From: a virus
Reading direction: 5' to 3' (one strand)
DNA length: 64,000 nucleotides
Virus record (IMG/VR): IMGVR_UViG_3300032236_001503
Location: 99,238-163,237 of that record
Below the pieces are notes generated by a model. It did not search any database and had not been told where the DNA came from. It saw nothing but the letters and a program-made list of their open reading frames with translations. Positions 10,789 to 58,867 of the stretch are shown in pieces. Both the position numbers and the translations under genes were made by a program. Position 1 is the first letter of the stretch. The number at the start of each line of letters is the position of its first letter.

Positions 10789-11694
10789 TTATTCTCCACG
10801 CTGATCGTCAAAGAGGAACTTACCAGCTTTTACACCCTTTGCATCATGGGATGCCTTGGCTTGAAGTTTACTTACACCTTCTTTGTTTTCGAAAGCTTCT
10901 GGCTTACCAGTTACTTTCTTACCCTTTACAACTTCAGCCTTTGTGCCAGCCTTTGGTACTGCACCCTTAACGTTCCATGCAGTTTTCTTTGTGTGACCAG
11001 CTTCTAACTTTTCTTGGTCAACGAGAGCGTGTCCGAGAACTTCAGCATCAACAGCTTCTTCACTGAGATCTTCATCTTCGTGTTCTGTTTCTTCTTCACC
11101 CTCTTCTCTTGAATCCTCTGGGAACTCCTCGCCCTCTTCTCCCTCTTCATGTTCGATATGACCTTCTAAGTGGGACTCAAGTTTACCAACTAATTCTTTA
11201 AGTTGTGAAACAAGGGATTCAAGATCCTCATGTTCGTCTTCTTCAAAATCTTCTACGTCATCCTCGTCACCAAATGCCTCTTCGTCACTGAGTTCTTCAT
11301 CATGACCACCAAGACCTTCAGGACCACCGAAATTATCTTCTGGTTGTACACCCTCTTCTGAACCAAATGCAAATGAATCTTCGGAAATGATCTTATTGAA
11401 TAACACATCAAATGGATTTCTTGAATCCTTTAATGTTAACTTCTCACTAGCCTTGAATTCCTTTGGCTCATTTTCTGGATCTTCTGAGAGTTCAGCAGGT
11501 GCTTCAACTGGAGCTTTAACATCTTTCTTGGCTTTTTCTACGCCAGAATCTTTATAGAAAGTTTCGGTATTCTTTTTATTTTCGGAATGACCAAATGGTT
11601 CTCCAACTTTTAAGGATTGTCCTTCGACTTTTCCAGATGCTGAGTTTTCTTCAATTACCTTGAGGTAGGCTGATGTGAGAGGATCTTGTTTCAT
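10789..11694 (-). CDS. Highly acidic late protein, possibly prohead core/scaffold-like
   Basis: E/D-rich centre with a short coiled coil; TAAATA upstream. Confidence 0.5.
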   Translation of the reverse strand: MKQDPLTSAYLKVIEENSASGKVEGQSLKVGEPFGHSENKKNTETFYKDSGVEKAKKDVKAPVEAPAELSEDPENEPKEFKASEKLTLKDSRNPFDVLFNKIISEDSFAFGSEEGVQPEDNFGGPEGLGGHDEELSDEEAFGDEDDVEDFEEDEHEDLESLVSQLKELVGKLESHLEGHIEHEEGEEGEEFPEDSREEGEEETEHEDEDLSEEAVDAEVLGHALVDQEKLEAGHTKKTAWNVKGAVPKAGTKAEVVKGKKVTGKPEAFENKEGVSKLQAKASHDAKGVKAGKFLFDDQRGE

Positions 11695-11709: not shown

Positions 11710-11991
11710 TTACTCCTGACCTATTCCATTTTCAATATTTTTTTTAAAATGTTGATTATTATTTTTATAATATTGATTAGGTTTATCTGGACGTTCTACG
11801 CCATAAGTTAGGTTCTCAACACCTCTACAATCTTTAATATCGAAATAAAGATATTCACCCGTTTCATGTAAATGAACCAAAAATACACCATTTTGATTCA
11901 TACCATAATCTATATGAATTATGGCGAATCCTTCACCCTTTGGGGTTTGAATCCAAAGGGGTGGTTCTAGTTGTAATTGTGAAACACTCAT
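11710..11991 (-). CDS. Conserved phage hypothetical protein
   Basis: QLEPPLWIQTPKGEG..IDYG motif. Confidence 0.6.
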   Translation of the reverse strand: MSVSQLQLEPPLWIQTPKGEGFAIIHIDYGMNQNGVFLVHLHETGEYLYFDIKDCRGVENLTYGVERPDKPNQYYKNNNQHFKKNIENGIGQE

Positions 11992-12839
11992 GCGTTATTA
12001 ATTAATAATTCTGCTTCTCTTTCGAGATTAAGAATATTTATCAACTCGTAATCATCTTGACCAGCAACCCAAATAATATTACAATCACCAACTTCAAATG
12101 GTGTATTTCTTTCTAGTATTAGTTTATACAAACAAAGCTGAAGACTATATTTACCAAGTTCACATTTAGGAACCGTATCAATTGGTGATAACATAGTTTC
12201 ACCTTTATAACCTTGCCTTTTTATTTCCTTATTAGTTTTATAATCGAATAAGGCAAGTTTACCAGTTTTCTTATTAAATGAAAGGTTATCAATGGTTCCA
12301 CAGATTTTAGTTTCTTTATCACCAACGACAAATTCAGATTTTAGAAGAATATGATCTTGTCTCCACCATTCATAAAAATTTTTAAAATTCTTAAGCATAA
12401 GAGCCATATCCATATAATATGTTGCGAGTTGATCATCGGTATATCGACCATTATGTTTTCTGTTTAAGAATTTAATAATGTCTTCCTTATCAATCGGGAT
12501 AGTTCTCCTCTGATAAAATTCTTCAACCATTAAATGAAACTCGTTGCCTTTATGACAAGAGTAATCTTTATTATATTCCCATTGCCATAAAACATCTTCA
12601 ACTAATTTACCATCTCTTTTTGCAACCCTGTGTGCAATACTATTATCAAATGGTTTTTCGTATTTTGAAATAAGTTGAGAAACAGACATTGCTGCTCTCT
12701 TACCATCAATTTCGTAATGGTGATCCTTCTCAAAAAACTTGATAGAAGAAAATGCTTCTTCTAAAAGTATTAAGCTATTAAAATTAATTTCTACCGAATC
12801 CGACGATTCTTTCTTTATCTTCATTTGTTTTTTCTTCAT
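11988..12839 (-). CDS. PD-(D/E)xK exonuclease (Cas4-like/RecB family); start uncertain
   Basis: H.YEIDG, SVSQLI, KGNEFH, SE...ICGTID...DYKT, YSLQLCLY. Confidence 0.85.
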   Translation of the reverse strand: MKKKQMKIKKESSDSVEINFNSLILLEEAFSSIKFFEKDHHYEIDGKRAAMSVSQLISKYEKPFDNSIAHRVAKRDGKLVEDVLWQWEYNKDYSCHKGNEFHLMVEEFYQRRTIPIDKEDIIKFLNRKHNGRYTDDQLATYYMDMALMLKNFKNFYEWWRQDHILLKSEFVVGDKETKICGTIDNLSFNKKTGKLALFDYKTNKEIKRQGYKGETMLSPIDTVPKCELGKYSLQLCLYKLILERNTPFEVGDCNIIWVAGQDDYELINILNLEREAELLINNA

Positions 12840-14692: not shown

Positions 14693-15664
14693 ATGATATT
14701 CGAAGAACAAATCAGCCGTAAACCCAACCATTACAAATGGACAGAAGAATTTATCGAAGCTATGCACAATGGTTTCTGGACAGATAAAGAATTTAATTTT
14801 AAATCTGACGTTCAACAATTCAAAGTGAATTTAAACGATCAGGAAAGAGACATTATCATTCGCACCCTTTCAGCAATTGGTCAAATTGAAATTGCTGTAA
14901 AAACATTTTGGGCAAAACTCGGAGAGAATCTCCCTCATCCATCATTAACCGATCTTGGTTATGTAATGGCTAACGTAGAAGTTATTCATAATAATGCTTA
15001 CGAAAGACTTATATCAGTCCTTGGACTTGAAGATGTATTTGAAAAGAATTTAAAGTTGAGTTGGATAGAAGGTCGTGTGAAATATCTAAGAAAATACACC
15101 CATCGTTTTTATAAAGATAGTAAAAAGCAGTATCTATATGCTCTCATTTTATTCACACTCTTTGTTGAGAATGTTTCCTTATTCTCACAATTCTATGTTA
15201 TCAATTGGTTTGCTCGTTTTAAGAATGTTCTTAAAGATACAGATCAACAAGTAAAATATACTCGTAACGAAGAAAATATTCATGCTCTTGTTGGTATTAA
15301 GATTATTAATACAATTCGTGAGGAATATCCTGATTTATTCGATGATGAACTTGAACAGAGAATTACACATGAAGCAAAGATGGCATTTGAATCGGAATCA
15401 GAAATTGTCGATTGGATGGTTAATGGAATCCAAGAAGAAAATTTAACTGCTCCTATTTTAAAAGAATTCATTAAGAATCGTATTAATGAATCACTTGCTC
15501 AAATCGGTTTTAAGCAACCATTTGAAATTAATAAAGATCTTTTAAGTAAAACTAAATGGTTTGAAGAAGAACTTCTTGGTAATAATATGACTGATTTTTT
15601 CCATTCTAGACCAGTAGAATACTCAAAGAAGAATCAATCGTTCACGGAAGACGATTTATTCTAA
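14693..15664 (+). CDS. nrdB: Ribonucleotide reductase class I beta subunit
   Basis: EVIHNNAY, ENVSLFSQF, EENIH, DFFH motifs. Confidence 0.97.
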   Translation: MIFEEQISRKPNHYKWTEEFIEAMHNGFWTDKEFNFKSDVQQFKVNLNDQERDIIIRTLSAIGQIEIAVKTFWAKLGENLPHPSLTDLGYVMANVEVIHNNAYERLISVLGLEDVFEKNLKLSWIEGRVKYLRKYTHRFYKDSKKQYLYALILFTLFVENVSLFSQFYVINWFARFKNVLKDTDQQVKYTRNEENIHALVGIKIINTIREEYPDLFDDELEQRITHEAKMAFESESEIVDWMVNGIQEENLTAPILKEFIKNRINESLAQIGFKQPFEINKDLLSKTKWFEEELLGNNMTDFFHSRPVEYSKKNQSFTEDDLF

Positions 15665-15715
15665 AATTTGATTGCTATTAAGCGTCATTTTGATAAGATA
15701 GATATATCAAATTTT

Positions 15716-17383
15716 ATGAGTACCGAAACGCAGAATTCCGACATTTATTGGCTTAACAAAGATTCTAGAAAGTTCCTTCAAAGAGGTTATTTGTTAGAAG
15801 GCGAAACACCAGAGCAAAGAATTCATGATATTGCAAAAACAGCCGAAAAGTTTTTAATCAAAACTGGCTTTGCAAAAAAGTTTGAGAACTATATGCACAG
15901 AGGATTTTATTCTCTCGCATCTCCTATTTGGTCGAACTTTGGTCGCAAGAGGGGTCTTCCTATTTCTTGTTTTGGTTCTTATATTGAAGATACTATTGAA
16001 AGTATCTTAGGAACTAAACACGGAGAAGTAGCTGTAATGACAAAGACAGGCGGTGGAACTTCTGGATATTTTGGAGAAATAAGAGGAAGAGGAGAGTCGA
16101 TTTCTTCTAATGGTGAATCTACTGGTTCTGTCCATTTTATGGAGAGTTACAATAAACTAATGAATGTAGTTTCTCAAGGTAATGTAAGAAGAGGTAGCTT
16201 TGCTGCATATCTACCAATTGACCATAAAGATATTGAAGAATTTTTAAAAATTCGCTCGGAAGGAAATGAGATACAAGATCTATCTATCGGTGTGTGTGTT
16301 TCTGATGAGTGGATGAAGTCCATGCTTGATGGCGATAAGGAAAAAAGAAGAATTTGGGGTCTTGTTATCAAGAAGCGTTTTGAATCGGGTTATCCTTATA
16401 TCTTCTTTAAAGACAATGCAAATAATCAAGCACCGCAAGTTTATAAAGATAAAGGATTAACAATTCACCATAGCAATCTTTGTAGCGAAATCATGCTTCC
16501 TAATTCACCAGATGAATCATTTGTTTGTGATTTATCATCAATGAATCTTGAGCGTTGGGAAGAATGGAAGGATACTGATGCAGTCGAAACGATGATTTGG
16601 TTTTTGGATGCAGTGATGGAAGAGTTTATTGAAAAAACCGAAGGGATGAAATTCATGGAAGCTGCTAGAAAGTTTGCTATTCGTCATCGTGCATTAGGTC
16701 TTGGTGTTCTCGGTTGGCATTCACTTTTGCAATCCAAGATGATTGCATTTGAATCGATGGAAGCAAAGTTCCTTAATGGAACTATTTGGAAAACTATCCG
16801 TGAAAGAGCAGATAAGGCAACAGCTGAACTTGCTCAAAAATACGGTGAACCAGATATCCTTCAAGGATATGGTCGTAGAAACACAACTACGCTTGCTGTT
16901 GCACCCACAACATCTTCCTCATTTATTCTGGGGCAAGTATCTCCAAGCATTGAACCTAACAATAGTAACTACTATGTTAAGGATCTTGCTAAAGGAAAGT
17001 TCTCATATAAGAATCCTTATCTTAAGAAACTTTTGAAAGAAAAAGGTAAAAATGATGATGATACTTGGCTTGATATTCTCAAGCATAGTGGATCGGTTCA
17101 GCATTTAGATTTTCTTACGCAAGAAGAAAAAGATGTATTTAAGACATTTGAAGAAACATCTCAAAGGGAAATTATCATTCAAGCTGCTGGTAGACAAAGG
17201 TATATTGATCAGGGTCAAAGTTTAAACATGCTTATCCCTGCTGGTACACCCCCTAAAGCAGTTAATGAGCTTATCATCTTTGCTTGGGAAAATGGAATCA
17301 AGAGTCTTTATTATCAAAGATCTACCAATCCAGCCAAAGAATTAGCTAGATCAATTATGACTTGCAAATCATGTGAAGCATAA
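15716..17383 (+). CDS. nrdA: Ribonucleotide reductase class I alpha subunit (no ATP cone)
   Basis: PISCF, GGGTS, RRG, SNLCSEI, APTTSSS, DQGQS, KSLYY, C-terminal CxxC; start set at ATG 15716. Confidence 0.97.
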   Translation: MSTETQNSDIYWLNKDSRKFLQRGYLLEGETPEQRIHDIAKTAEKFLIKTGFAKKFENYMHRGFYSLASPIWSNFGRKRGLPISCFGSYIEDTIESILGTKHGEVAVMTKTGGGTSGYFGEIRGRGESISSNGESTGSVHFMESYNKLMNVVSQGNVRRGSFAAYLPIDHKDIEEFLKIRSEGNEIQDLSIGVCVSDEWMKSMLDGDKEKRRIWGLVIKKRFESGYPYIFFKDNANNQAPQVYKDKGLTIHHSNLCSEIMLPNSPDESFVCDLSSMNLERWEEWKDTDAVETMIWFLDAVMEEFIEKTEGMKFMEAARKFAIRHRALGLGVLGWHSLLQSKMIAFESMEAKFLNGTIWKTIRERADKATAELAQKYGEPDILQGYGRRNTTTLAVAPTTSSSFILGQVSPSIEPNNSNYYVKDLAKGKFSYKNPYLKKLLKEKGKNDDDTWLDILKHSGSVQHLDFLTQEEKDVFKTFEETSQREIIIQAAGRQRYIDQGQSLNMLIPAGTPPKAVNELIIFAWENGIKSLYYQRSTNPAKELARSIMTCKSCEA

Positions 17384-17987: not shown

Positions 17988-18388
17988 AAAGCTGGGAACA
18001 ATACGCATATGATCTTGCCATAGTCGCTGCGAGTAAGTCTAAAGATCCTTATGTAAAAGTTGGATGTTGTTTACTCAGAGATGACAATAGTGTTGCATCT
18101 TTAGGTTATAATGGATTTCCTGCTGGTATGCTAGAGGATTGGTCGGATCGTGATGAACGCAGAAAATACGTTGTTCACTCTGAAATTAATGCACTTCGTT
18201 ATATTAAACCTAATGAGTGCTATTTAGCTGCGACAACACTCCTCCCCTGCAATGATTGTTTAAAATCTCTTGCATCCTATGGGATTAAGAAGATCATATA
18301 CGGCGAGGTCTATAAACAAGACCCATCAACTCTTGAACTAGCTAAAAAGTTCGGAATTGAATTAGTCAATATCGTGTCTGTAGACTAA
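17984..18388 (+). CDS. dCMP deaminase
   Basis: SKDP..KVG, GYNG, HSEINAL, PCNDC. Confidence 0.95.
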   Translation: MKSWEQYAYDLAIVAASKSKDPYVKVGCCLLRDDNSVASLGYNGFPAGMLEDWSDRDERRKYVVHSEINALRYIKPNECYLAATTLLPCNDCLKSLASYGIKKIIYGEVYKQDPSTLELAKKFGIELVNIVSVD

Positions 18389-18709
18389 TACGTTAGCTAC
18401 CTTCACAATATGTTCTTCTGCTGATGTAATCAGATCTTGCATCCAAGGTTCAATCACACTACCTTTCTTTATTGCATCAACTGCCTGATGAGCATGCGCA
18501 ACAACCGAGCGTAGGCGAGTTTCAACCATACGGATTTTTTCATGTTCTAAATTTTCTAAATTTTCACCATCTTCTAAGTGTTCAGATGGTTCGATATCCT
18601 TACTGAAGTCACTATCATCTTCATGATGTGAATGCTCTTCTGGTGCAACTTCAAAGGAAGCAACTTCTTCATATGCTTCCATTAAACTTCTGATATCTTT
18701 TTTATTCAT
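18362..18709 (-). CDS. Acidic late protein carrying the D-x3-L-x2-A-Y N-terminal motif
   Basis: MNKKDIRSLMEAY; IEPWMQDLIT.A; TAAATA upstream. Confidence 0.65.
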   Translation of the reverse strand: MNKKDIRSLMEAYEEVASFEVAPEEHSHHEDDSDFSKDIEPSEHLEDGENLENLEHEKIRMVETRLRSVVAHAHQAVDAIKKGSVIEPWMQDLITSAEEHIVKVANVLVYRHDID

Positions 18710-18965
18710 ATGGAATATTTACCCATATGAGTAACAAAATCAGAAATTTATTTTTATAGTCGTATAAGTTCTAACTCTGTTAATACTGTTAAAATTATTA
18801 TAATCTAATAAATTTTCGCCAGTTAATTTAACTTCAAATGTTTTATGTTTAGATACTTGTAAAAAGTAAAGATTCTCTAACCTATCTTGCGCATAATCCT
18901 TTATAGGTAAATTAATATAATTTATTTCATTAGTATCTGCAAAACAGATACTGGTAAAAAATATA

Positions 18966-19361
18966 TTACATATGAGTAATAACCTCATGAAACTCTTTCG
19001 GAATAATAACATTATTTGGATGGTTTTTAAACATTGGAGCAATATCTTCAGGCGTATATCCTGCTAAACCACAACCAATTTGAGTTACTAAAAAGGTTTT
19101 ATCTGAGTTTTCTTTAGCATATTCCAAGAAATCAATAACATATTCTTCAATTCTGGTTAATGGAAGAGTCCAAATCATTTCATCTTTAGTTGGGATTGCA
19201 TAACATTGCCCAGTGATACCTATACCAACTCCCATTTGAGCACCAAATTTTTCTCTTGCGAGTTTAGCTGCTCCTGCACCATGAACACCTTTGAGATTTG
19301 AACCAAATACAAAAATCTCATTTGCTTTAAGTTCGTTTATATAGTTATCTGTGTATTTCAT
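18966..19361 (-). CDS. A1S_2505-like (macrodomain-related) phage protein
   Basis: IFVFGSN..G.HGAGAA, YAIPT, FLVTQIGCGLAG. Confidence 0.85.
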   Translation of the reverse strand: MKYTDNYINELKANEIFVFGSNLKGVHGAGAAKLAREKFGAQMGVGIGITGQCYAIPTKDEMIWTLPLTRIEEYVIDFLEYAKENSDKTFLVTQIGCGLAGYTPEDIAPMFKNHPNNVIIPKEFHEVITHM

Positions 19362-20341
19362 ATTTTTTTAAAAACAAAAACTGGTTCATATTTGAATCCA
19401 CCTTTAGTGATACTGGAAAGTTGAAGTTTAAGAGTTTCAATCAATTCAAATCCTTCTTCCTGTGCAATTCTAACAGTATCTGCCTCCAGTGTATTATGCG
19501 TTATTACGTTGGCTACGTTCAATATCATATGTCCAGTTGATTTAAGACAACTATAACAGTTTTGTATGGTCTTACGCAAGAAGTTTTCATTCCAAGATTG
19601 AACATTATCATATGCCATATAACTCTGGGTTGCTTCATCAGAATACTTTTCAGTATTAAAATACGGTGGTGATGTAAAGCATAAATCAACATCTTGTGAA
19701 AATAAGAATTTATCTTCACTTCCTCTTTTCTGGATAAGAGAAAACATATTCATATATTGAAAATCTTCCTGCATTTGCTGTAAACCATTAAACGTTTCGG
19801 TGCAAGGATCAGTACCATAATAAAACTTCACTACACCGCTTGCTAATGCCCCTAGGAACCTCCCACCAAAGCCACATGACATATCCCATACAATTCCATC
19901 TCCTGCATATTTACGATAAATTCCAGCGGCTGCTGATGGTCTGAAATTTGATACGGATTGAACACCAGAATGACTTCTGAGAGCTTTTCTAATTTGAGAA
20001 TCAGTCATTGAACCATCTGGTTTTAGCATTGGAAACCCACCTCTTTTTAGTCTTCTCTCGACCGCTTTTTTAAGAAGATCTTTATCATTAAAAACTTCCA
20101 TTGGTGTTTTCATATTCCTAGTCTTCACACTCCATGCATGAGGGAAGTATGACCAAGCTAAACCCAATCCATGCATGGTTTGTCTAACTGTATCACCTTG
20201 GATTATCTTAGATAAATCATACTTCTTAATCTTTTCCAATTCCTTTTTCTTCTCATTTAGTGAGAATTCATAATATGGGAATCCCCTGCTTAATACATAA
20301 GCATAGGCGGTATCCAATACGCTACTATCAAATGTGTACAT
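19358..20341 (-). CDS. Amino (N4-C/N6-A) DNA methyltransferase
   Basis: DMSCGFGGR SAM-binding motif, FTSPPYF catalytic motif. Confidence 0.9.
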   Translation of the reverse strand: MYTFDSSVLDTAYAYVLSRGFPYYEFSLNEKKKELEKIKKYDLSKIIQGDTVRQTMHGLGLAWSYFPHAWSVKTRNMKTPMEVFNDKDLLKKAVERRLKRGGFPMLKPDGSMTDSQIRKALRSHSGVQSVSNFRPSAAAGIYRKYAGDGIVWDMSCGFGGRFLGALASGVVKFYYGTDPCTETFNGLQQMQEDFQYMNMFSLIQKRGSEDKFLFSQDVDLCFTSPPYFNTEKYSDEATQSYMAYDNVQSWNENFLRKTIQNCYSCLKSTGHMILNVANVITHNTLEADTVRIAQEEGFELIETLKLQLSSITKGGFKYEPVFVFKKI

Positions 20342-36863: not shown

Positions 36864-36912
36864 ATTAATATCTTATCATAGAAAATAGACTTGTAAAGCA
36901 TAAATATTTATA

Positions 36913-37275
36913 GTGAAAGATAACGACGAAAAAAAATTACAAATGATTTACGAGAAACTCTCTCATTCATCCGCTGAAGAGATGAAAGAGGATGATATCG
37001 GTGAACAAGAAAAAAGTGAAGAGATCGTAGATGAAAAACCACATGTGATGTATATTGATGTGGGTAATGATGTTTGGGAAATTGATCTAATGTCTGATGA
37101 TCATAAAAGAGACCCAAATAATCTTTTACATAAAGTTAAAAAATTTCTAATCTATTATAGAAACGATAAAGAAATAAATCACAATTTTTTGCATGGATTA
37201 CTCCATAGTGAAAAGCTTGCGAAATACTTAAAAAAGTTTAATACACACCCAGCAGAGTTTTTAAATCAACTTTAA
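36913..37275 (+). CDS. Late protein carrying the D-x3-L-x2-I-Y N-terminal motif
   Basis: MKDNDEKKLQMIY; TAAATA 6 nt before the GTG start. Confidence 0.65.
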   Translation: MKDNDEKKLQMIYEKLSHSSAEEMKEDDIGEQEKSEEIVDEKPHVMYIDVGNDVWEIDLMSDDHKRDPNNLLHKVKKFLIYYRNDKEINHNFLHGLLHSEKLAKYLKKFNTHPAEFLNQL

Positions 37276-39489: not shown

Positions 39490-39639
39490 TTATTTTTTGC
39501 TTTTCTTTTTATTCTTAATGCAATTATTAACTCTTTTACCTGTTCTACTACTTGTTTTTAAACCTTCTTTATGGTATCCATCCCAACATTTTACTTTTTT
39601 ACCTTCTAAAATGGATGCGAATAAAGTATCAAATTTCAT
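39490..39639 (-). CDS. 49-aa basic peptide with CWDGY...GK.V.NC motif (missing from the ORF track)
   Basis: MKFDTLFASILEGKKVKCWDGYHKEGLKTSSRTGKRVNNCIKNKKKSKK. Confidence 0.7.
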   Translation of the reverse strand: MKFDTLFASILEGKKVKCWDGYHKEGLKTSSRTGKRVNNCIKNKKKSKK

Positions 39640-49656: not shown

Positions 49657-50268
49657 CTATTTTAAATAATCTAAAGTAGAACCCTTGCGAGATTCTTTAA
49701 TTAAACCTTCTTCTGGATTAAATTGTTTGCTACCCTTACCACCCAAATATCTTAATGTTGAGTTGAATGATTCTTGGGCAACTGCTGTTTTTCCATCAAT
49801 ATGATCTGCCATCTTTTGTGCGCTACGATCAACATGTGAATTTTTTGCTGCATCTAAACTCTTTTTTAAGTCATTAAGAAATGCTTCTAAATTTTCTCTT
49901 GATGGATCATTGATGTAATTCTGTGCGATTTGATCGGATGTTTTTTCACCAATATCTTTTAAAAGTTCTTGTTGTTGTGCTACTGGTCTACCCTGTAATA
50001 ACGCCTTCACCTTACCGATAATATCCTGAACACCAGCACGAGAAGCTAAATGCTGAAGACCAGCAACGGCGGCAGCACCCATTGCACCGGGTACGGCAAA
50101 TGAAGCCAAAGTAATAAGACCCTGAATACCAGCTGGTAAGTGTTGGGTATTAGCCAATGCTGTACTAATCATTTGCCCCACCTCGGCTAAGTTTTCATTG
50201 ATAACGTTTCTTTTAACGCTACCATATGCTTCTTCTAAACTAACTTGATCTTTTGAATTTGAGAACAT
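49657..50268 (-). CDS. Protein carrying the D-x3-L-x2-A-Y motif, with a hydrophobic Ala/Gly segment
   Basis: MFSNSKDQVSLEEAY. Confidence 0.65.
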   Translation of the reverse strand: MFSNSKDQVSLEEAYGSVKRNVINENLAEVGQMISTALANTQHLPAGIQGLITLASFAVPGAMGAAAVAGLQHLASRAGVQDIIGKVKALLQGRPVAQQQELLKDIGEKTSDQIAQNYINDPSRENLEAFLNDLKKSLDAAKNSHVDRSAQKMADHIDGKTAVAQESFNSTLRYLGGKGSKQFNPEEGLIKESRKGSTLDYLK

Positions 50269-50269
50269 A

Positions 50270-50716
50270 TTATTTCTTTTTCTTTTTCTTTGCTACGGAT
50301 TTTTTATGAGATGCTTCTACATCTTTTTTACAACGCTTATATTTTGCTTCGTCTTCACGACCTACGGTTTTAGTACAAATTGCATATTTGCTACCTTCAG
50401 TCCATTTCTTTTTAGCCTCTTTGATAACATCAAGAGCAATGGAAAGTAAATCAAAAGCTTCTTCATCAATCTCTTTTTCTTTATCCTTTACATCCTTAAA
50501 TTCCTCTTCTTCAGTATCCTTTACATTTTCTTCCTTTTCATCTGCCTCAACTTTTGCATTTTTATAAGTGCTTGGCTTTTGTGTGCCAGTATGAGGATCA
50601 TTGTCTTTTCGATTAAAAGGGTGTTTATCATCAGTATTCTTTTCATCAATGTCTTTTGACTCGTTGATGATTTTAGAATAGATACTTTCTAATTCAGAGT
50701 GATCTTTATGCTTCAT
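50270..50716 (-). CDS. Late protein carrying the D-x3-L-x2-I-Y motif and a YAIC..TVGR...KY.RC module
   Basis: MKHKDHSELESIY; TAAGTA upstream. Confidence 0.65.
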   Translation of the reverse strand: MKHKDHSELESIYSKIINESKDIDEKNTDDKHPFNRKDNDPHTGTQKPSTYKNAKVEADEKEENVKDTEEEEFKDVKDKEKEIDEEAFDLLSIALDVIKEAKKKWTEGSKYAICTKTVGREDEAKYKRCKKDVEASHKKSVAKKKKKK

Positions 50717-50732
50717 TGAAAATACTTACTCT

Positions 50733-50978
50733 TTACGTTTCCAAAATCTCACGTAAATCTCTAAAAAGTCTATATGCTGCACCAATACTTAAATGTAAAA
50801 GAATACCTTCAAATGAAATTTTTAAAATAGTTGATTCATTAACTTCACCGCTTTCGTCTAAAATCTCCTCAACTTTTACTTCTTTGACCACGAAAGATTC
50901 TTTCTTCTTTGCTTTCGCAGCGAATTCCTTCGTTTTCATTCTTTTATTATAGTCTTTATTGGACATACTATTATCCAA
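50733..50978 (-). CDS. Hypothetical protein
   Basis: 81-aa ORF; TAAGTA upstream. Confidence 0.5.
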   Translation of the reverse strand: MDNSMSNKDYNKRMKTKEFAAKAKKKESFVVKEVKVEEILDESGEVNESTILKISFEGILLHLSIGAAYRLFRDLREILET

Positions 50979-51040
50979 TACTTATCGATTATTAACTACC
51001 CATTAACACTGTTATATTGGGCAATCGTAAAGGATAAATA

Positions 51041-52669
51041 CTAGCTTGCGTAGCACTGGATTTCATATAAAGGATCATCATTGTGATCCTTTCCATGATA
51101 ATGCCAATTGAATGAAATTAAAGAATTTTTAACGGCTGGATGTTCATCAAATGTTGCGGTTTTTTCATCATGCTTTCTATATGAAAGATTTCTTTGACCA
51201 TTCGCACCAATCAATAAATCACCTCTTACCATGTCTAATTCAAACCCAAGACCATGTAATGCCTTTGCTACAGCAGCAATTCCTTTTGATGGATTCCCAA
51301 AACGACCGTTACCATCTAATCCAGCTTCTTGGAAAGCTCTTCCGATTGCTCTTCTATCGGAATCCTTTACTTTATAGATTGGTTGAATCTTAGGTGTTTC
51401 GTTTTCTGATAAAACTTTTCTGTTGAAGAAACTCTTAAATGATTCTTGTTTTACTTCACCTTCCTCTGAAGGTGATTCTTGTTTATTAGCAAAGTCATAA
51501 ATGTAATCAATTATTTCTCTTGCTGCACCACCAATGATTTTTTCATTCTCCGATACGTGTTCGGGATCTATTCTCCAAATTGCAAGATATTTTGAAGCAT
51601 GTTCGTGTGGTAAATCAAACTCTCTTAATACAACATACGCAACACCTTCGGCTTGCAGTTCTTTAATTTTTCTGTCAACTTCCATTCTTGCTTCTAAATC
51701 GTGAAGCATTTCATGTGCGATCTCGTGAACCAATGTTGAGATATTTTCAGACATTAATTGGATAGAACCCATCTTACTGACACCTCTTGCTCCACCTAAT
51801 CCTTCTGCGCTAATATCAACCTGAATATTACGCTTTTTAGCAAAGTCCATAAGAGCATCAAAGATAACTCTTGTTTTTTCATCAGGTGTAGTTTCATCAA
51901 ACCATTTTGGTTCTTCTACCATTTTGTTTTCCTTGCCTTCGATTTGTTCGGTGTCGGAAACATCAAACACTGGTCTTAAAATAAAACGGGTTTGTCTAAG
52001 AACTTCTTGATCTTGAGCAGCATCGGCTTCGTCTTGATTTAACTTTTTAGAAATTGGAACATAAATGTATATTCCCTTTGCTCCCTTTTTTAACTGGCGA
52101 TTAAATTCCTTTAACCATTTATTTTTACCAGCAACATGGGTTGCGTTTCTCTTTTGAATAAAGATTAACATTTGATTCGCAAATGAATATCTTCTAAACT
52201 TCTTTCTAAAATTAAAAAATTCCTGAACCTCTGGTGAGCTTGCATCAGTTTTAATTTTTTCTTTTAATTCGTCTAAGAATGATGTAATCTTATCTTGCAT
52301 ACCTTCATCGACAGCATCTTCTAATTTTGATGCAATATCACCGAAGTCGGTTTCTGCTAAAGGTTTTTCGGTTTTATTTAATGAATAAATTGCCTTAACA
52401 TATTTTGGTGCTTCTACATCTCTTTGATGTTCAGAATCAAATGGTTTTACCCATGCTCTTAAATTTGCTCCGTCCCAAATAAAACCAGCCTTTTTAATTG
52501 CATCCTTTTTCTTAAAGGTTTCTCCATTTTGATTGGTAGTAACAACAAGAAGATATTTTGTATTACCGTTTTTATCCGTTATATTTTTCTTAGCAAGTGC
52601 TAAATCTTCTTCAAGAACCGAATACATTTCTGTATAAATGTTTTCAAGTATTAAGGCATCGTTTTTCAT
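51041..52669 (-). CDS. ArdC-like ssDNA-binding N-domain plus ImmA/IrrE-like HExxH metallopeptidase and an extra C-terminal domain
   Basis: F..YSF.N..LI..Q...AT.VAG...W....RQLKKG.KGI.I..P, VFDVSDT, TLVHEIAH, E..AE.VAY. Confidence 0.85.
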   Translation of the reverse strand: MKNDALILENIYTEMYSVLEEDLALAKKNITDKNGNTKYLLVVTTNQNGETFKKKDAIKKAGFIWDGANLRAWVKPFDSEHQRDVEAPKYVKAIYSLNKTEKPLAETDFGDIASKLEDAVDEGMQDKITSFLDELKEKIKTDASSPEVQEFFNFRKKFRRYSFANQMLIFIQKRNATHVAGKNKWLKEFNRQLKKGAKGIYIYVPISKKLNQDEADAAQDQEVLRQTRFILRPVFDVSDTEQIEGKENKMVEEPKWFDETTPDEKTRVIFDALMDFAKKRNIQVDISAEGLGGARGVSKMGSIQLMSENISTLVHEIAHEMLHDLEARMEVDRKIKELQAEGVAYVVLREFDLPHEHASKYLAIWRIDPEHVSENEKIIGGAAREIIDYIYDFANKQESPSEEGEVKQESFKSFFNRKVLSENETPKIQPIYKVKDSDRRAIGRAFQEAGLDGNGRFGNPSKGIAAVAKALHGLGFELDMVRGDLLIGANGQRNLSYRKHDEKTATFDEHPAVKNSLISFNWHYHGKDHNDDPLYEIQCYAS

Positions 52670-52674
52670 ATATT

Positions 52675-55635
52675 TTAATATTTACTTCTAAAGTACTTAG
52701 CAAAGCTTTCTTTTATCGCACCACCCAATTCATCAGCAATGATATCAAGATCACTTCCTTCAACTTCAGCAAGTTTCTTTTGGGCATCGATAATTTTTTG
52801 AAGAGCTTCTGAATCCTGATCACTTATCTTCTCTTGTTGATAGATCTTTCTATAAGTTTGAATAATTTCAGCAAGTTTCTTTTTCTTCTCGACGTTTTCG
52901 TAGAGTCTCTCGTCTCCACCGGGATTGATATTGTAAATCACTCTGACATTCTGATTGGTATTGATTCTATAAATTCTACCTTCACTCTGCTCAACGGATT
53001 CAGGTGTCCAATCATAATCATTAACAATCATTGTCTTAAATGTATTAGGGAATGAAATACCAGTTCCACCCATCTTCATACTCATCACCAAAATCTTAGC
53101 ATCAGGATGCTCCATTTTCTTTTTAACTTGATCCAATTCCTTCTTAGGTGTTGAACTCAAGAATGAATATGCTTTCCATTTTGGATTCACACTAGCAAGA
53201 GCTTCTTCGGCTTTACTTAACAGTTCTTGTCCTGCACCAACAAAGTTTGTGAAAATTAAAACCTTACTGGCAGAATAATTGTTTTCTTTATCTTTTTGGT
53301 TGTTAACAATTATATCCATTGCCATTCTGATGGTCTCGTCGGTTTTTTCCTTTGCTATAATATCTCTAAATGCAAGCATCTGAGATATTGCAAGATTTGG
53401 ATCTTTATATCCTTTAATTTTATCATTAACCTGTTTAATAAATTCTGCTTGTTTCTTAATAGAATTTCTTTTTTCCTTATCGATTTTAATATCAGGCATC
53501 TTCTCACCCTTCTCGCTTCTCATGTCTTCCTTGGAATGTCTAATATAAATTCCAGTAAGGTGCATCCATTTGTTAAGATGTTCAGCGGCTCTTATTCTAT
53601 CTTCAAAATCACCTTCGACATATGCTCCACCATAACCAGCTGGAACCATTCCTGCAAACTCTCTTTTAAACTTGCTATCATCAAGAAGACCCATAGGATG
53701 TCCTAAAATTGCCAATTGATTCTTAACATCCATTGGTTTATTAGCGGAAACCGTGGCAGTTGCACCCCATCTACATTTTGCTTTCTCGGCAATCTTCTCA
53801 AGATTTTGTGATCTCTTTGATGTGCTATGTTTGAGTTTATGTAATTCGTCAAAGATAACAACCGAATATTCTTGGTTTGAAAGATGATTGATAACTCCTT
53901 CTAAATTTCCACCAGCAGAGAAGTTCTCATAATAAAGAACATTCCATTTCTTTGTAACCATTGGATCAACGGAGATTTCTTTTCTTTCCTTTTCACCCAT
54001 AACAGCAACAATTTCTTCTGCGAACTGACTTTGAACTCTCTTTAATGTGACAATAAGAATTGGTTTCTTTTCTTCTTTGTAAACTAATTCAGCAGCATAA
54101 ATCATCTGAACAGTTTTTCCACCACCTGTTTCTGATCCCAAGATGGCATACTTGTTCTTATAAAGGAAATCCACTCCTTCTTTTTGCAAACCAAAAAGTT
54201 TAAATCCAGATTCTGGGAAATCATTATCGGTTGCTTCCGATACTTGTTCTTGTTTCTTTAATTTAAGATCTCTTGCTGGTTTAAGAATACCATCTTCTTT
54301 CATTTTCTTAAACACAATTCTGAGATTATCAACATTGAAATTATTATCTTTTAAGATCTGACCCAATTTTACATATTGTTCATAGTCGCCCTTTAAATTA
54401 GCCATGTAATTCTCCCACTTGGCAGTTGGGAAAAGATAACGAATACATTCTCTAAAGACTTTCTTTGCGTCTTCTGGAATACCTGAAGCATAATTTGGTG
54501 CAAGTCTAATTCCTTGTTTTGCAACATATTCAACATTAAGGAGATAACCATCACCACTTTCTGGTTTTACTTCTTCAACCGAACCATCACCAACTGGTGC
54601 TTCTTCTTTCCCAAAATGTTTTTCAAGATCAGATACATCAAGATCTTGTTCAAAAATTGGCTTTAATAATTCATAAGATGATTTCTTATCATCCATGAAT
54701 ATTTTCTTTGATGCCATATCAAATGATAAAAGTTTAGGAGTCAAGCCAGCATTTTTACATGCGAAATAAACTTTCTTTGAAACCGGACTACCTGTGGGAC
54801 CTAAATTAACCTCAAGCTTTCTGCCATATTTGGTTGGAAATGCTGAAACAATTTCAACCTTTGGTTTATTAACTGGTGCTTCTTCTTCACCCTGTCCTCT
54901 TGCTGGTAAATTACCAATTTCTTTAATCTCAACATCTGGATAAATCTTTTCTGCTAATCTACGGGCAAGTTCAGGAACCATGTAGAACTGACTTGGTGTA
55001 AGCTTTTTGAAATATTTGTAACTGTCTTGGAAAACATAATTTCCATAGTTGTCAATAACCTTTGGTATATTTTGTTCTTGGAAATAAGGATAGATAACTT
55101 CCTTATTGATTCTATTAATGGATGGGTATTCTTCCTTTACAACTCTTTTTCCACTTTTGATTTTAGGAACAGTAACCAAGATTTTACCGTATTGGGTATT
55201 TGAATAATCAAAAACTATCTTATCTTCATCCTGTTGTTGGGTATTTGTTACCTTGTTTATTTCATGACGGAGAACTTTCTCTTCCCCATCCCAATTAAAT
55301 CCGATACTTTTTAATTGGGTTGATCTATACTTGTAAAGTGCTCCCATTAATCTCTGGATTAACCACACAGGCATTTCATCACCCATGTTAAATTCTGGAG
55401 CTTGCATTAATCCATTACCCCATGCACCACCTACAATTGTAGTCCAATCAATTTTATTGAATCCCAAATCATTGAATTCATTTGGAACACCTCTTGCTGC
55501 CATGTCATTAACAGCCTTTCTAAGTCTAAGAATAGCATCGGCTTTTACCAATTTTTTGGAGTTCTCGTCTTGATGAAGTCCCTCAACGACAACCTCATAT
55601 AGACTTTCCAAAATTATTGAATCTTTATCGTACAT
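52675..55635 (-). CDS. SNF2-family helicase/translocase with long N-terminal extension
   Basis: Q.EGV.FL, ETGGGKT, IFDELH, TAT...N.P, KVLIFT, GGTGI, W.P...QSEGRIYRI. Confidence 0.9.
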   Translation of the reverse strand: MYDKDSIILESLYEVVVEGLHQDENSKKLVKADAILRLRKAVNDMAARGVPNEFNDLGFNKIDWTTIVGGAWGNGLMQAPEFNMGDEMPVWLIQRLMGALYKYRSTQLKSIGFNWDGEEKVLRHEINKVTNTQQQDEDKIVFDYSNTQYGKILVTVPKIKSGKRVVKEEYPSINRINKEVIYPYFQEQNIPKVIDNYGNYVFQDSYKYFKKLTPSQFYMVPELARRLAEKIYPDVEIKEIGNLPARGQGEEEAPVNKPKVEIVSAFPTKYGRKLEVNLGPTGSPVSKKVYFACKNAGLTPKLLSFDMASKKIFMDDKKSSYELLKPIFEQDLDVSDLEKHFGKEEAPVGDGSVEEVKPESGDGYLLNVEYVAKQGIRLAPNYASGIPEDAKKVFRECIRYLFPTAKWENYMANLKGDYEQYVKLGQILKDNNFNVDNLRIVFKKMKEDGILKPARDLKLKKQEQVSEATDNDFPESGFKLFGLQKEGVDFLYKNKYAILGSETGGGKTVQMIYAAELVYKEEKKPILIVTLKRVQSQFAEEIVAVMGEKERKEISVDPMVTKKWNVLYYENFSAGGNLEGVINHLSNQEYSVVIFDELHKLKHSTSKRSQNLEKIAEKAKCRWGATATVSANKPMDVKNQLAILGHPMGLLDDSKFKREFAGMVPAGYGGAYVEGDFEDRIRAAEHLNKWMHLTGIYIRHSKEDMRSEKGEKMPDIKIDKEKRNSIKKQAEFIKQVNDKIKGYKDPNLAISQMLAFRDIIAKEKTDETIRMAMDIIVNNQKDKENNYSASKVLIFTNFVGAGQELLSKAEEALASVNPKWKAYSFLSSTPKKELDQVKKKMEHPDAKILVMSMKMGGTGISFPNTFKTMIVNDYDWTPESVEQSEGRIYRINTNQNVRVIYNINPGGDERLYENVEKKKKLAEIIQTYRKIYQQEKISDQDSEALQKIIDAQKKLAEVEGSDLDIIADELGGAIKESFAKYFRSKY

Positions 55636-55650
55636 GTTTTATATTTACTC

Positions 55651-56085
55651 TTAGGTAAGTTCGGCTGTTAATTTCCCATCAATAATTGAAACTTGCTTGG
55701 CATTGTGTACAGGTGATTCATCTGCACGATTTACGAAGGAATTGTATTTGTAAGGGTTATAGGTGATGGAAACTGGTAAAACAACTGGTTCTTTGTTTTC
55801 CAAATACCCGATTACGCCAGCATGGACGTTTTTTCTCTTCTCTTCACGAACTCTTTCCATTCCCCCTTGGCGAACTTTCAACACACAATCTCTGAGCATG
55901 AGATTTCTCTCATGTCCAATAACCCTATTTGTTGAAACATCCATGATTGAGAAAATAGGGTATCCAAGTTTATCTGACAAGTTTAAATTTTTATAAACCC
56001 AAACTTTTCCGGTAAAGCCTTTGTGACCTGTTTTGGCAACAAGTCCATAGGCTTCTTGGATTAATAATGTGTCACGATCTCGCAT
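55651..56085 (-). CDS. Conserved phage protein (VYKNL...VRQGG.ERV..EKRKNVHA family)
   Basis: Family motif, YNPYK..SF; N-terminal MRDRDTLLIQEAY. Confidence 0.7.
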   Translation of the reverse strand: MRDRDTLLIQEAYGLVAKTGHKGFTGKVWVYKNLNLSDKLGYPIFSIMDVSTNRVIGHERNLMLRDCVLKVRQGGMERVREEKRKNVHAGVIGYLENKEPVVLPVSITYNPYKYNSFVNRADESPVHNAKQVSIIDGKLTAELT

Positions 56086-56097
56086 TTTTATAATAAT

Positions 56098-56126
56098 TAC
56101 CCTTAAAAAATTTTTTTAACTAAGTA
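56098..56126 (+). repeat. ~30-bp direct repeat, copy 1, containing a late-promoter core
   Basis: TACCCTTAAAAAATTTTTTTAACTAAGTA; second copy at 57654-57683. Confidence 0.6.
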
Positions 56127-56134
56127 AATAAGAG

Positions 56135-57649
56135 ATGGATTTAAAGAAAATCATATTAAATGTCTTGGAAGAAGGTCACTTCCACATACCAAGAGAAGTG
56201 TTTCAAGACATGATGAATTACTATCTTGAGATGTATAAAAAGTTTAAGGTCAATGGTGGCAAGAGAGTCACGGATCAACAATATCCACCAAAGAAGTTTA
56301 AATTGGATTTTTCCAAGGTAGGTAAGAGTTTTGAGTTTCTTAAAAACACACCAACACCACCTGAAGTAACCTTGCGCTTTACTGCAAATAATTCCGCACA
56401 ACATTGCAGATTTCAGGCAGGATATAATTCAGAAATCCAGCTTTCATTAAATGATGCAGAAAGAGTTTACACAGAGGTTATGGAGCACGAATTACTCCAT
56501 TCACTTCAGAATATATTAAAAAAACACGAACAGTTTAGAAGAAATCAGGTTGATCCCAAAGACGTAAGGGTAAAGGATAAAAAATCAATCTATAAGTCCA
56601 AAGACCCAAATTCCATCTGGAGAGCAAAATTGCCAGACGTTGAGTATGCAGGTGTACCAAAGAAAAAATTTATAGATCAAAAATACGATTGGCACGGATA
56701 TTCCAAAAACAAATACGCTCAAAGAAGAACAACCCACGAGAAAAGACCAATTGAATATTATCCGGATTTATTCTCCTCAATCAAGAGTATGCAAAGAAGT
56801 TGGTATAAATTCGCCAAACATCATGCAATGGATGAGAATGCCGTTAGATCAGAAGAAAAGAAAAAGAACTTCTACATGCTCTTTTTTAATAACATAAAAA
56901 CAGGTAAACCATATCCTGATTATGCCAAAAACTTCATCCCCAGCTTGGCAAGTAAAATCTTTGAGGTGTTTAAGAAAAACGGAGATGATTTTCTAAACAT
57001 GATGTTAAAGAAACTCTATGACGGATTTGTTAATAAAGATCCGGATTTCTCCTATGATGAATTCAAAAGTGTTGAGAAACAAGCCGAAGACGATGCCTAT
57101 AATAAACAAAACGAAAAGGCAAAGAAATTAGGCTTAAAGGAACCAGCAGCATTTAGTTTTGATCCTAGAAGCCTGAAACTTGATTACTATGACAGAGGTG
57201 AAATCTTTGATCAGGTTCAAAACGAAGAAGCCGAAGAATACCTTGATGGGAATAGATCGGAAAATGCCGAATATGTTTTAAACGAGCTTGGTTTAAAATC
57301 CAAGGAAGACAAGAGAGGTAATGAATATGTCTTATATCCAAGTAAAATAACAAACATTATAAAACTCTTTAAAAAGATAGCTGGTTTGAAAAATAGCACA
57401 TTTGATAAGGTTTCCAAACAGGCAAGTGATGCTATGTGGGATGGGGTGTTTAATTACTTCCTTGCCACCTACACAAGAGCACTAACAACGGAAGCATTAC
57501 CAAATTTAGATAGAAGATGGTTTCGCCTAACAGGAGAAAACGAAAAAGACGCAAGAAGACAATCCAAAGAAAATTACGATAAGCAAATAGCCGAATATTC
57601 TGATAACTTCAAAAAACTCATAGGCTCTTTGCGTTCTGCCAACGTATAA
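56135..57649 (+). CDS. Large late protein with zincin-like HExxH motif
   Basis: MEHELLHSLQ with downstream PIEYY; TAAGTA/TAAATA upstream. Confidence 0.65.
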   Translation: MDLKKIILNVLEEGHFHIPREVFQDMMNYYLEMYKKFKVNGGKRVTDQQYPPKKFKLDFSKVGKSFEFLKNTPTPPEVTLRFTANNSAQHCRFQAGYNSEIQLSLNDAERVYTEVMEHELLHSLQNILKKHEQFRRNQVDPKDVRVKDKKSIYKSKDPNSIWRAKLPDVEYAGVPKKKFIDQKYDWHGYSKNKYAQRRTTHEKRPIEYYPDLFSSIKSMQRSWYKFAKHHAMDENAVRSEEKKKNFYMLFFNNIKTGKPYPDYAKNFIPSLASKIFEVFKKNGDDFLNMMLKKLYDGFVNKDPDFSYDEFKSVEKQAEDDAYNKQNEKAKKLGLKEPAAFSFDPRSLKLDYYDRGEIFDQVQNEEAEEYLDGNRSENAEYVLNELGLKSKEDKRGNEYVLYPSKITNIIKLFKKIAGLKNSTFDKVSKQASDAMWDGVFNYFLATYTRALTTEALPNLDRRWFRLTGENEKDARRQSKENYDKQIAEYSDNFKKLIGSLRSANV

Positions 57650-57653
57650 AAGC

Positions 57654-57683
57654 TACCCTTAAAAAAATTTTTTGCACTAAATA
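57654..57683 (+). repeat. ~30-bp direct repeat, copy 2
   Basis: TACCCTTAAAAAAATTTTTTGCACTAAATA. Confidence 0.6.
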
Positions 57684-57692
57684 TAAAAAGAA

Positions 57693-57932
57693 ATGAAAGC
57701 ACCAAAAAGACTCGTAACACTAAAGGAACTCTATCAGACGAAAGTTTTGAAGGAAAATCAAATCCCTACAAATGAAACTGCAAGTGATATGGATGCTTTA
57801 TACACAATCATTAGAAATGCACTCAATAGAAACCATATTGATTTCAAAGAAGAAGCCGATTGTTTAAAGGTTGAATATTTCGAAAAACAGTATGAGATCA
57901 AGGTTTCTGAGCTTGGTAATACTGGATTATAA
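57693..57932 (+). CDS. Hypothetical late protein
   Basis: 79 aa; TAAATA upstream. Confidence 0.55.
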   Translation: MKAPKRLVTLKELYQTKVLKENQIPTNETASDMDALYTIIRNALNRNHIDFKEEADCLKVEYFEKQYEIKVSELGNTGL

Positions 57933-57967: not shown

Positions 57968-58867
57968 ATGTCTTTTAATCAAAATTCATTTACTCAGGGA
58001 GAATTATTCCCATTGGTTCAGGGTGAATTATTTTCCAATTTACCAAATACCCGTAAAATAAAAAAAGGAAAATGTCTTCAGTGTCATAATGAATTTTCAA
58101 AATCAAAAAGCAATAATCTCTATTGCTCAAAAAAGTGTGTCAATAATGCATACCGTGAAAGAAAATTTCCCAAGAATATAGTTATAGTAAAATGCTTAAA
58201 GTGTTCTGAAGAGTTTGAAAGAAAACGCAGTGATCACAAATATTGTTCAAAGATTTGCTTAAATAAGCACAAATACGAATTAAACAGAGAAGAGTATTTA
58301 AAATATTCCAAACAATGGAGAGAAAGTAACAAAGAACGAGTCAAGCAATGGAGAATAGATAATAAAGATCGTTTGGCAAAATGGTATGAAAAAAACAGAG
58401 ACAGGCAAAATGAACGCAAAAGAATAGCAGAAAAAATACGCTATAATAAAAAGAAAGATGAAATCTATGCCAAACGCAAACATTTCATAAAAACAAATCC
58501 CCATGCCAAAATAGCAACTGCATGTAGGAAAAGAGTTCAGGCAATTTTTAGACGTAGTGGAATTAAAAAGAGTTCCAAAACCATAGAACTCTTAGGATGC
58601 ACTGCCAAAGAAGCAAAACAACATATAGAAAGCCAATTTAAAGACGGTATGAGTTGGGATAACTATGGCTTCTATGGATGGCACATAGATCATATAAAAC
58701 CATGTGCTGCCTTTGACCTAACCGATCCTGAAGAGCAAAAGAAGTGTTTCCATTACACAAACCTTCAACCCCTATGGTGGCAAGATAACCTTTCCAAGGG
58801 TAAGAAATATAATATAAATGATTTGGAATTAATTCCATTATCTTCAGAATCTTCGGCGCAACCGTAA
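57968..58867 (+). CDS. HNH endonuclease with Zn-finger repeats
   Basis: C..C...YCS..C x2, LGC, GM.W.NYG..WHIDHIKPC..FDL, CFHYTNLQPLW..DN..K. Confidence 0.92.
   Translation: MSFNQNSFTQGELFPLVQGELFSNLPNTRKIKKGKCLQCHNEFSKSKSNNLYCSKKCVNNAYRERKFPKNIVIVKCLKCSEEFERKRSDHKYCSKICLNKHKYELNREEYLKYSKQWRESNKERVKQWRIDNKDRLAKWYEKNRDRQNERKRIAEKIRYNKKKDEIYAKRKHFIKTNPHAKIATACRKRVQAIFRRSGIKKSSKTIELLGCTAKEAKQHIESQFKDGMSWDNYGFYGWHIDHIKPCAAFDLTDPEEQKKCFHYTNLQPLWWQDNLSKGKKYNINDLELIPLSSESSAQP

Follow-up and report, generated by a model that had tools for sequence, protein, structure and literature searches.

Why should proteins with unrelated bodies begin with the same short peptide? The question is raised by the window, a 64,000-nucleotide stretch that forms the last 64 kb of the 163,237-bp IMG/VR virus record IMGVR_UViG_3300032236_001503 (called G000 here; completeness estimate 73%). 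An earlier note on this DNA had described a shared N-terminal motif, D-x3-[LI]-x2-[AIL]-Y, on seven unrelated proteins, and had proposed a portable signal, different from that of phage T4, that loads them into the head for injection. The motif is most likely the front part of an N-terminal leader of 15–25 residues. With good probability, this leader is a lengthened, lineage-specific form of the capsid targeting sequence (CTS) of T4, and it would serve a modular set of head-packed proteins that changes fast and probably has anti-defence roles. It is thus most likely a longer version of a known signal and not a system separate from that of T4. Four related records (G001, G002, G003 and G004) were compared with G000 at full length.

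The nine open reading frames (ORFs) of the earlier note, their N-terminal peptides and their upstream boxes were all reproduced, and the motif on the seven unrelated proteins was borne out; it begins at residues 3–6. The strict pattern gave 33 six-frame matches across the 163-kb genome, roughly 7 of which fall inside real proteins. Eight of the 33 are near the beginning of ORFs with at least 110 amino acids (aa), 3–6 residues behind the initiation codon: the seven claimed before and an eighth outside the window (genome 49543–49887; leader MNDKDSRLLQEAY). About 0.4 N-terminal matches are expected and 8–9 were seen (binomial P near 1e-11, our estimate from the match counts). When each member was scored with a profile that left it out, it ranked between 8th and 32nd among 49,669 positions. 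The bodies behind the leader are unrelated, with a lowest BLASTP E-value of 0.09. The leader-coding DNA is 47% identical among members, and the conserved residues use synonymous codons (GAT/GAC, TTA/CTT/TTG, TAT/TAC); the leader is therefore no DNA repeat, and selection acts on the peptide and not on DNA or RNA. The consensus reads M-x-x-[KR]-D-x-x-x-[LI]-x-x-[AIL]-Y-x-x-[VI]-hydrophobic-x-E. Two other window genes were considered and set aside as probable chance matches. The first (19358–20341, MYTFDSSVLDTAY) fits the pattern, but it has neither a late box nor a Lys/Arg before the Asp, and its profile score is low. In the second (11988–12839), the leader-like residues 20–33 are located inside a PD-(D/E)XK exonuclease domain match.

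The genome encodes the head-assembly proteins on which a T4-type targeting signal would depend. A gp21-type prohead protease (Peptidase_S77, PF03420, 107 bits, E=6e-32; genome 24521–25015) has GELNHP and SSRxLG motifs that align with T4 gp21, and the gp23-type capsid protein is clear (PF07068, 307 bits, E=9e-93). Between these two genes, outside the window, is the gene of an acidic, gp22-like scaffold candidate of 305 aa (genome 23157–24074). Its family matches are weak (T4_CASP, 21 bits, below the cut-off; phrog_237, E=0.002), and it aligns with T4 gp22 over the best-conserved segment, around IVEM. A gp4-like head-closure gene comes next. The best matches of gp23 among cultured phages are cyanophages, at approximately 34% identity. 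Because T4-type head genes are present and the capsid protein is this distant from its best cultured matches, the phage, judged by these genes, is a member of a deep, uncultured T4-like lineage. Alignment of gp23 with T4 did not place a maturation site.

In T4, the internal proteins (IPs) IPII and IPIII start with MKTYQEFIAE followed by A, IPI starts with MKTFKEF, and the scaffold protein gp22 starts with MLKEQLIAE, again followed by A. Targeting resides in residues 4 and 7 of the CTS (Tyr4 and Phe7), and residues 8 and 10 steer its processing by gp21 (PMC9026906). A comparable core is present here. All eight G000 leaders contain Y-x-x-[VILM]. The earlier note had also seen a hydrophobic-x-E site behind the motif in several members, and we found it in 5 of the 8 G000 leaders; across the five genomes, [LIVM]-x-E occurs no more than 13 residues behind the Tyr in 16 of 22 leaders, compared with 13.8% after internal tyrosines (P=6e-10). 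The leader resembles the CTS of IPI, IPII, IPIII and the Alt propeptide in being N-terminal, in standing on unrelated late proteins, and in having an aromatic residue with a hydrophobic one at +3, in most leaders followed by hydrophobic-x-Glu, in a genome with a gp21-type protease, a gp22-like scaffold and gp23. It differs in being about twice as long, with a conserved front half ([KR]-D-x3-[LI]-x2-[AIL]) that T4 lacks, and in the variable distance between the Tyr and the cleavage-type site. The long leader as a whole does not resemble MKT[YF][QK]EF, since the front half differs. The T4 cargo consists mostly of small basic proteins, whereas here some of the predicted cargo consists of large enzymes (542 and 986 aa). 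We did not use the strict T4 core to define further members; its enrichment at N-termini is only 2–3-fold, which is too weak.

The strongest single argument for the link to the T4 CTS is, in these alignments, provided by the leaders on one cargo domain. The 144-aa protein of G000 (55651–56085, minus strand; leader MRDRDTLLIQEAY) has an L5 gp82-like domain (PF25735) from residue 26. Relatives that are 77–83% identical begin with the long leader, followed by LICEE. Those that are 55–59% identical have MLTFKEYFEE or MLSFKEYFEE, then A, in the leader position. Other homologues have a third leader, MKILIKENQYKKLLE, and further ones are leaderless, including an unannotated ORF in the T-even-type Erwinia phage FBB1. 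Mycobacteriophage matches start at residue 27, behind the leader. At two loci, L058 and L059, genes with the long leader and with the T4-type leader stand side by side. Missing from the G000 copy (at residues 13–20) are six residues, SLICEE or similar, that contain the predicted cleavage site in the closely related aligned sequences P0003, P0004, P0009 and P0010. The G000 protein may go into the head without being cut, or the cut may fall within the motif, at IQE|A. The AlphaFold2 (AF2) model of this protein has a helix at residues 4–19 with low predicted local distance difference test (pLDDT) values and a beta-rich domain at residues 27–142, where most block means of pLDDT exceed 90.

A second, shorter leader class, which the earlier note had not listed, is nearer to the T4 sequence MKT[YF][QK]EF than the long leader is. 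It reads MKFD-x-L-[VFY]-x-x-[IL]-L-E and occurs throughout the five genomes, where most of its carriers are small basic proteins of 49–94 aa. Examples are a 49-aa basic protein in the window (39490–39639, minus strand; leader MKFDTLFASILE, predicted cut before G), G003 19207–19850, G004 15342–15763 and several genes of G001 and G002. Small genes of G003 and G004 related to 39490–39639 begin with MKFD[AL]LV.S[IL]LEE. Because the T4 head genes, the shared core and a near-canonical T4-type leader on orthologous cargo are found together, the long leader is best read as a longer lineage variant of the T4 CTS. The proposal of a portable capsid-loading and injection signal thus stands as the best-supported, inferred reading; its supposed distinctness from the T4 signal does not, given the T4 core and the T4-type leader on orthologous cargo.

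Which proteins carry the long leader? A 986-aa protein (52675–55635, minus strand; leader MYDKDSIILESLYEVVVE, predicted cut before G) contains a SNF2/Rad54-type translocase core at residues ~460–960. PF00176, PF04851 and PF00271 are above cut-off, two RecA-like lobes have SNF2-type signatures, and among PDB entries the SNF2/Rad54 core of Sulfolobus (1z63) matches best (E=1e-12). No domain was assigned in front of residue ~410; residues 20–420 gave no usable feature match in the ESM Atlas, and all structural matches had template modelling (TM) scores of 0.34 or lower. The helicase orthologues of G001 and G002 (40–46% identical) retain a leader, followed by IQE or LVE. The adjacent 542-aa protein (51041–52669, minus strand; leader MKNDALILENIYTEMYSVLEE) has an ArdC-N-like domain at residues 122–229 (PF08401, 27 bits, cut-off 22.6; phrog_7245 anti-restriction, E=6e-12) and an HExxH motif at residue 315. 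Its layout is, by these family matches, that of ArdC, with a predicted N-terminal ArdC-N domain for binding to single-stranded DNA and a C-terminal HExxH metalloprotease motif; a PDB sequence search gave no match.

The remaining leader-bearing proteins in the window are small, acidic, basic or hydrophobic, and without family. A charged 148-aa protein (50270–50716, minus strand; leader MKHKDHSELESIYSKIINE, predicted cut before S) has a leader that ends in Y-x-x-I-I-x-E (IYSKIINE), a pattern as in the T4 sequence TYQEFIAE. The gene of a 203-aa protein with a Gly/Ala-rich hydrophobic stretch (49657–50268, minus strand; leader MFSNSKDQVSLEEAYGSVKRNVINE, predicted cut before N) is translationally coupled to it. 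Two acidic proteins complete the set: one of 120 aa (36913–37275, plus strand; leader VKDNDEKKLQMIY), and one of 115 aa (18362–18709, minus strand; leader MNKKDIRSLMEAY). Two observations back the GTG start of the former: a TAAATA box is present 6 nucleotides (nt) upstream, and the G004 orthologue begins with an identical leader.

The leader genes share a late-promoter-like box. TAA[AGT]TA ends 6–9 nt before the start in six of the eight, and the other two are coupled to a box-bearing gene. The same box precedes 59 of 191 other genes. Its enrichment on leader genes is modest and significant (Fisher P=0.016). One TAAATA box (55642–55647, minus strand) precedes the helicase gene's ATG by 6 nt, and similar late-type boxes are at 18716–18721 (TAAATA), 36901–36906 (TAAATA), 50723–50728, 52679–52684 and 56094–56099. 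Tail, baseplate and fibre genes are preceded by the same box, starting mostly 11–13 nt (some 15–18) before the ATG.

In the related genomes, cargo is exchanged behind a conserved leader. G003 (195 kb, 92% complete, gp21 81% identical) has seven N-terminal copies of the leader, and eight are present in G004 (gp21 97% identical to G000). In the distant G001 and G002 there is one N-terminal copy each, and the helicase orthologue retains a leader in both. The cargo in these relatives is mostly without family, the exceptions being an AstE/AspA-like zinc hydrolase, with its domain from residue 20, and a GP88-like protein. When G000 and G004 are compared, homology spans the 144-aa gene and the intergenic region, continues into the first codons of the next gene and then ends: window 51041–55594, with the ArdC-like and SNF2 genes, is replaced in G004 by a 377-aa GP88-like gene. 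A second G000/G004 junction is found at the first codons of 50270–50716. In the 203-aa protein, residues 1–20 are 95% identical between the two genomes and the next 100 residues are 45–48% identical. The variable IP loci of T-even phages hold different IP genes behind a conserved CTS (PMC9026906, PMC3012670). The likeness is that close relatives differ in cargo at the same locus, with homology stopping within the leader codons; the difference is that here the lineage is uncultured, with the capsid protein distance given above, and the cassettes are enzyme-sized.

How widespread is the leader? IMG/VR was scanned for M-x-x-K-D-x3-[LIM]-x-E-A-Y, which gave at least 128 matches in at least 120 stretches; the following counts refer to the matches listed. 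True ORF starts account for 94 of 128. Among 84 distinct leaders, V or I is found at Tyr+3 in 68%, a position that the scan left unconstrained, and a hydrophobic-x-Glu cleavage-type site is present in 69%. Cargo length ranges from 64 to 675 aa, and in several of the short loci two to four genes are tagged. Peptidase_S77 was detected in 5 of 10 large leader-carrying contigs, and most of the rest are fragments. Most of the non-start matches belong to one protein family with the motif at an internal position. In this conserved family (L144, L147, L148, L156 and at least ~20 other loci), MLNKDVNFIREAYP is located ~83 residues inside the protein, in a different context. Two further loci, L198 and L208, encode a 101-aa protein that begins with M[NT]SKDKEFI[AS]EAYSLIVQ[IL]EE.

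The scaffold itself has segments that look like the leader. In T4, the N-terminus of gp22 (MLKEQLIAE) resembles the CTS; likewise, the gp22-like N-terminus here resembles the ArdC-like leader (MKNFKAILENLDKSVISEE compared with MKNDALILENIY...SVLEE). The best-conserved gp22-like stretch, KDSSYIEENFNYVVE (residues 223–240), aligns with T4 gp22 ...AIVEM and shares the spacing of Lys-Asp, Ile/Leu-Glu, an aromatic residue and Val-Val-Glu with the helicase leader KDSIILESLYEVVVE. By our estimate, this segment match has a ~3% chance of arising at random, and no co-variation was demonstrated. The leaders may imitate a scaffold contact. A more ambitious proposal, which we hold only tentatively, is that the long leader (M-x-x-K-D-x3-L-x-E-A-Y-x-x-V...) is an undescribed, widespread capsid-targeting class of uncultured T4-like phages that mimics the phage's scaffold (the N-terminal propeptide and K-D-S-S-Y-I-E-E-N-F-N-Y-V-V-E) and tags swappable cassettes of injected enzymes, a modular, Dar-like anti-defence delivery. 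If this were true, the proteins swapped in ready-tagged and then injected would include complete enzymes, among them a SNF2 translocase of 110 kDa and an ArdC-like protease. The C-terminal tail of gp21 was also considered. There, DNGELEALY just behind the Pfam domain matches the strict pattern in G000 and G004 only. With a 24-leader profile, the G000 and G004 tails rank 18 of 49,485, those of G003 and other orthologues fall in the 1–4% range, and T4 gives no match; the tail was not relied on.

For a longer variant of the T4 CTS, the course of events would be as follows. The leader genes would be expressed late, and the leader would dock each protein onto the gp22-type scaffolding core during prohead assembly. 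The gp21-type protease would cut after the hydrophobic-x-Glu a few residues behind the Tyr, and the freed cargo would remain in the head and exit with the DNA at infection. We infer packaging, cleavage and ejection from the leader, its cleavage-type site and the head genes.

Several observations weigh against this interpretation. The hydrophobic-x-E behind the Tyr is absent in three of the eight G000 leaders (18362, 55651 and genome 49543), and these three may therefore be cut elsewhere or remain uncut. The strict T4-like core, [FY]-x-x-hydrophobic-hydrophobic-x-E, was seen at four N-termini with 1.5 expected, a weak excess. The leader helix is predicted at low confidence only in the AF2 model. 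Hydrophobic moments are inconsistent; they scatter between the 26th and 99th percentile for the eight leaders, which gives no support to an amphipathic helix in general. The likeness of the leader to the gp21 tail and gp22 segments is weak or merely suggestive. No cultured phage bearing the long leader was found by megablast of the region or by tblastn of a 22-residue leader and a conserved 186-aa cargo. Finally, L198 and L208 are two complete genomes of ~60 kb with no gp21 or gp23 match: either the leader-like N-terminus occurs outside T4-like phages, or these two cases are coincidence.

Could the shared N-terminus have another purpose, or none? Chance, or a remnant of common ancestry among paralogues, might be suspected in an AT-rich genome where Lys, Asp, Glu, Leu and Tyr codons are common. 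With some 0.4 N-terminal matches expected, the 8–9 copies on unrelated bodies speak against it, as does the recurrence of the pattern in four relatives and at no fewer than 94 IMG/VR ORF starts; the counts effectively refute this explanation, and we give it almost no weight. It is also very improbable that what is conserved is a feature of the mRNA or of translation initiation in late genes whose 5' leaders are very short, with no function of the peptide. The late box does end just 6–9 nt before the start and codons 2–5 are A-rich, but conservation reaches residue 13–17, is seen at the amino-acid level with varied synonymous codons and low nucleotide identity, and most other box-bearing late genes are without the motif.

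If the peptide is what counts, its destination need not be the head. A tag that is short, conserved, predicted helical and confined to late genes would also suit an intracellular docking or regulatory peptide, such as a degron or a handle that times late proteins, with no packaging involved. Such a peptide leaves the gp21-type cleavage motif behind the leader unexplained. It also does not account for domains that are leaderless elsewhere (mycobacteriophages, Erwinia phage FBB1) gaining both tag and late box here, and we regard it as quite unlikely. An address to some other place, for instance the lumen of tail or baseplate, the membrane of the cell, or a compartment for phage replication or assembly, is unlikely as well. 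What speaks for it is that the head location of the leader proteins is a prediction, that the 203-aa member has its hydrophobic stretch, and that two 60-kb genomes that are not T4-like carry a leader-like N-terminus. The leader, however, is net acidic and without signal-peptide or transmembrane character. It has its core and, in most leaders, the cleavage-type site in common with the T4 head-targeting sequence, and on the same cargo T4-type leaders replace it.

Some window genes have looser versions of the leader. A very acidic 301-aa protein (10789–11694, minus strand) has a short T4-like leader core, SAYLKVIEE. The G003 orthologue begins with MIDPIAKAYLKVIEEE, and the leader core is conserved. 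The protein is extremely acidic and of low complexity (pI 4.5), and its gene is under a late box; possible roles are DNA mimicry and that of an accessory protein in the core or scaffold. Two weak candidates are a 504-aa protein without known family (56135–57649, plus strand; loose leader MDLKKIILNVLEE, predicted cut before G), transcribed divergently from the cargo cluster, and a 79-aa protein (57693–57932, plus strand; loose leader version LVTLKELYQTKVLKE). The only two A6-7/T6-7 palindromes of the 163-kb genome are both in this cargo locus, at window 56105–56117 (between 55651–56085 and 56135–57649) and 57661–57673 (between 56135–57649 and 57693–57932). Each has ACCCTT in front and a late-type box just downstream. 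A shared element for regulation or termination would be one possible role, a site of recombination another. A 299-aa HNH/endonuclease VII-like gene (phrog_1035, phrog_1271; window 57968–58867, plus strand) adjoins the variable cargo cluster, and a homing-type nuclease at this place could promote cassette exchange.

What might the cargo do? In the window, its predicted members include an ArdC-like protein, a SNF2 translocase, a protein like L5 gp82 and small proteins that are acidic or basic; countering host defences when the DNA enters is therefore their likely task. The cargo of the T4 internal-protein system is likewise linked to anti-restriction. ArdC-N, a Zn-metalloprotease motif and a SWI2/SNF2 ATPase together make up the domain set of the polyvalent proteins, for which passage into the cell along with invading DNA is predicted or known (Iyer et al. 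2017, PMC5512222). There the domains are part of one giant polypeptide, whereas here they are spread over separate proteins with one leader apiece. P1 DarB, a methylase-helicase, is packed in the head, and its N-terminal 30 residues are enough for targeting (PMC9024508). The 986-aa protein is similar to it in being a large helicase-type protein with predicted head packing via an N-terminal signal and a presumed anti-restriction role. The Dar proteins are without a common leader; here one leader is common to all. A DarB-like methylase-helicase identity for the 986-aa protein was rejected, as the domain search detected no methylase family and tblastn gave no match to P1. Many head-internal proteins of the giant phages phiKZ, 201phi2-1 and SPN3US are also processed after Glu by a T4-related prohead protease (PMC9026906). 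Their propeptides are long and are not known to share a short address motif.

The value of such a leader is in what it may give access to. Proteins injected with the phage DNA act ahead of any phage gene expression, and they are therefore the first line against host defences. To our knowledge, few such proteins have been described, and most of these are from T4 and P1. With a recognisable leader, candidate injected proteins in uncultured T4-like phages could be listed from sequence alone, and because most of the cargo is without known family, the list would be a pool of possible new anti-defence proteins. The natural leader variants on one cargo domain (long, T4-type, third and none) would be a ready series for work on scaffold recognition, which matters for the use of T4-type heads as protein-delivery vehicles.

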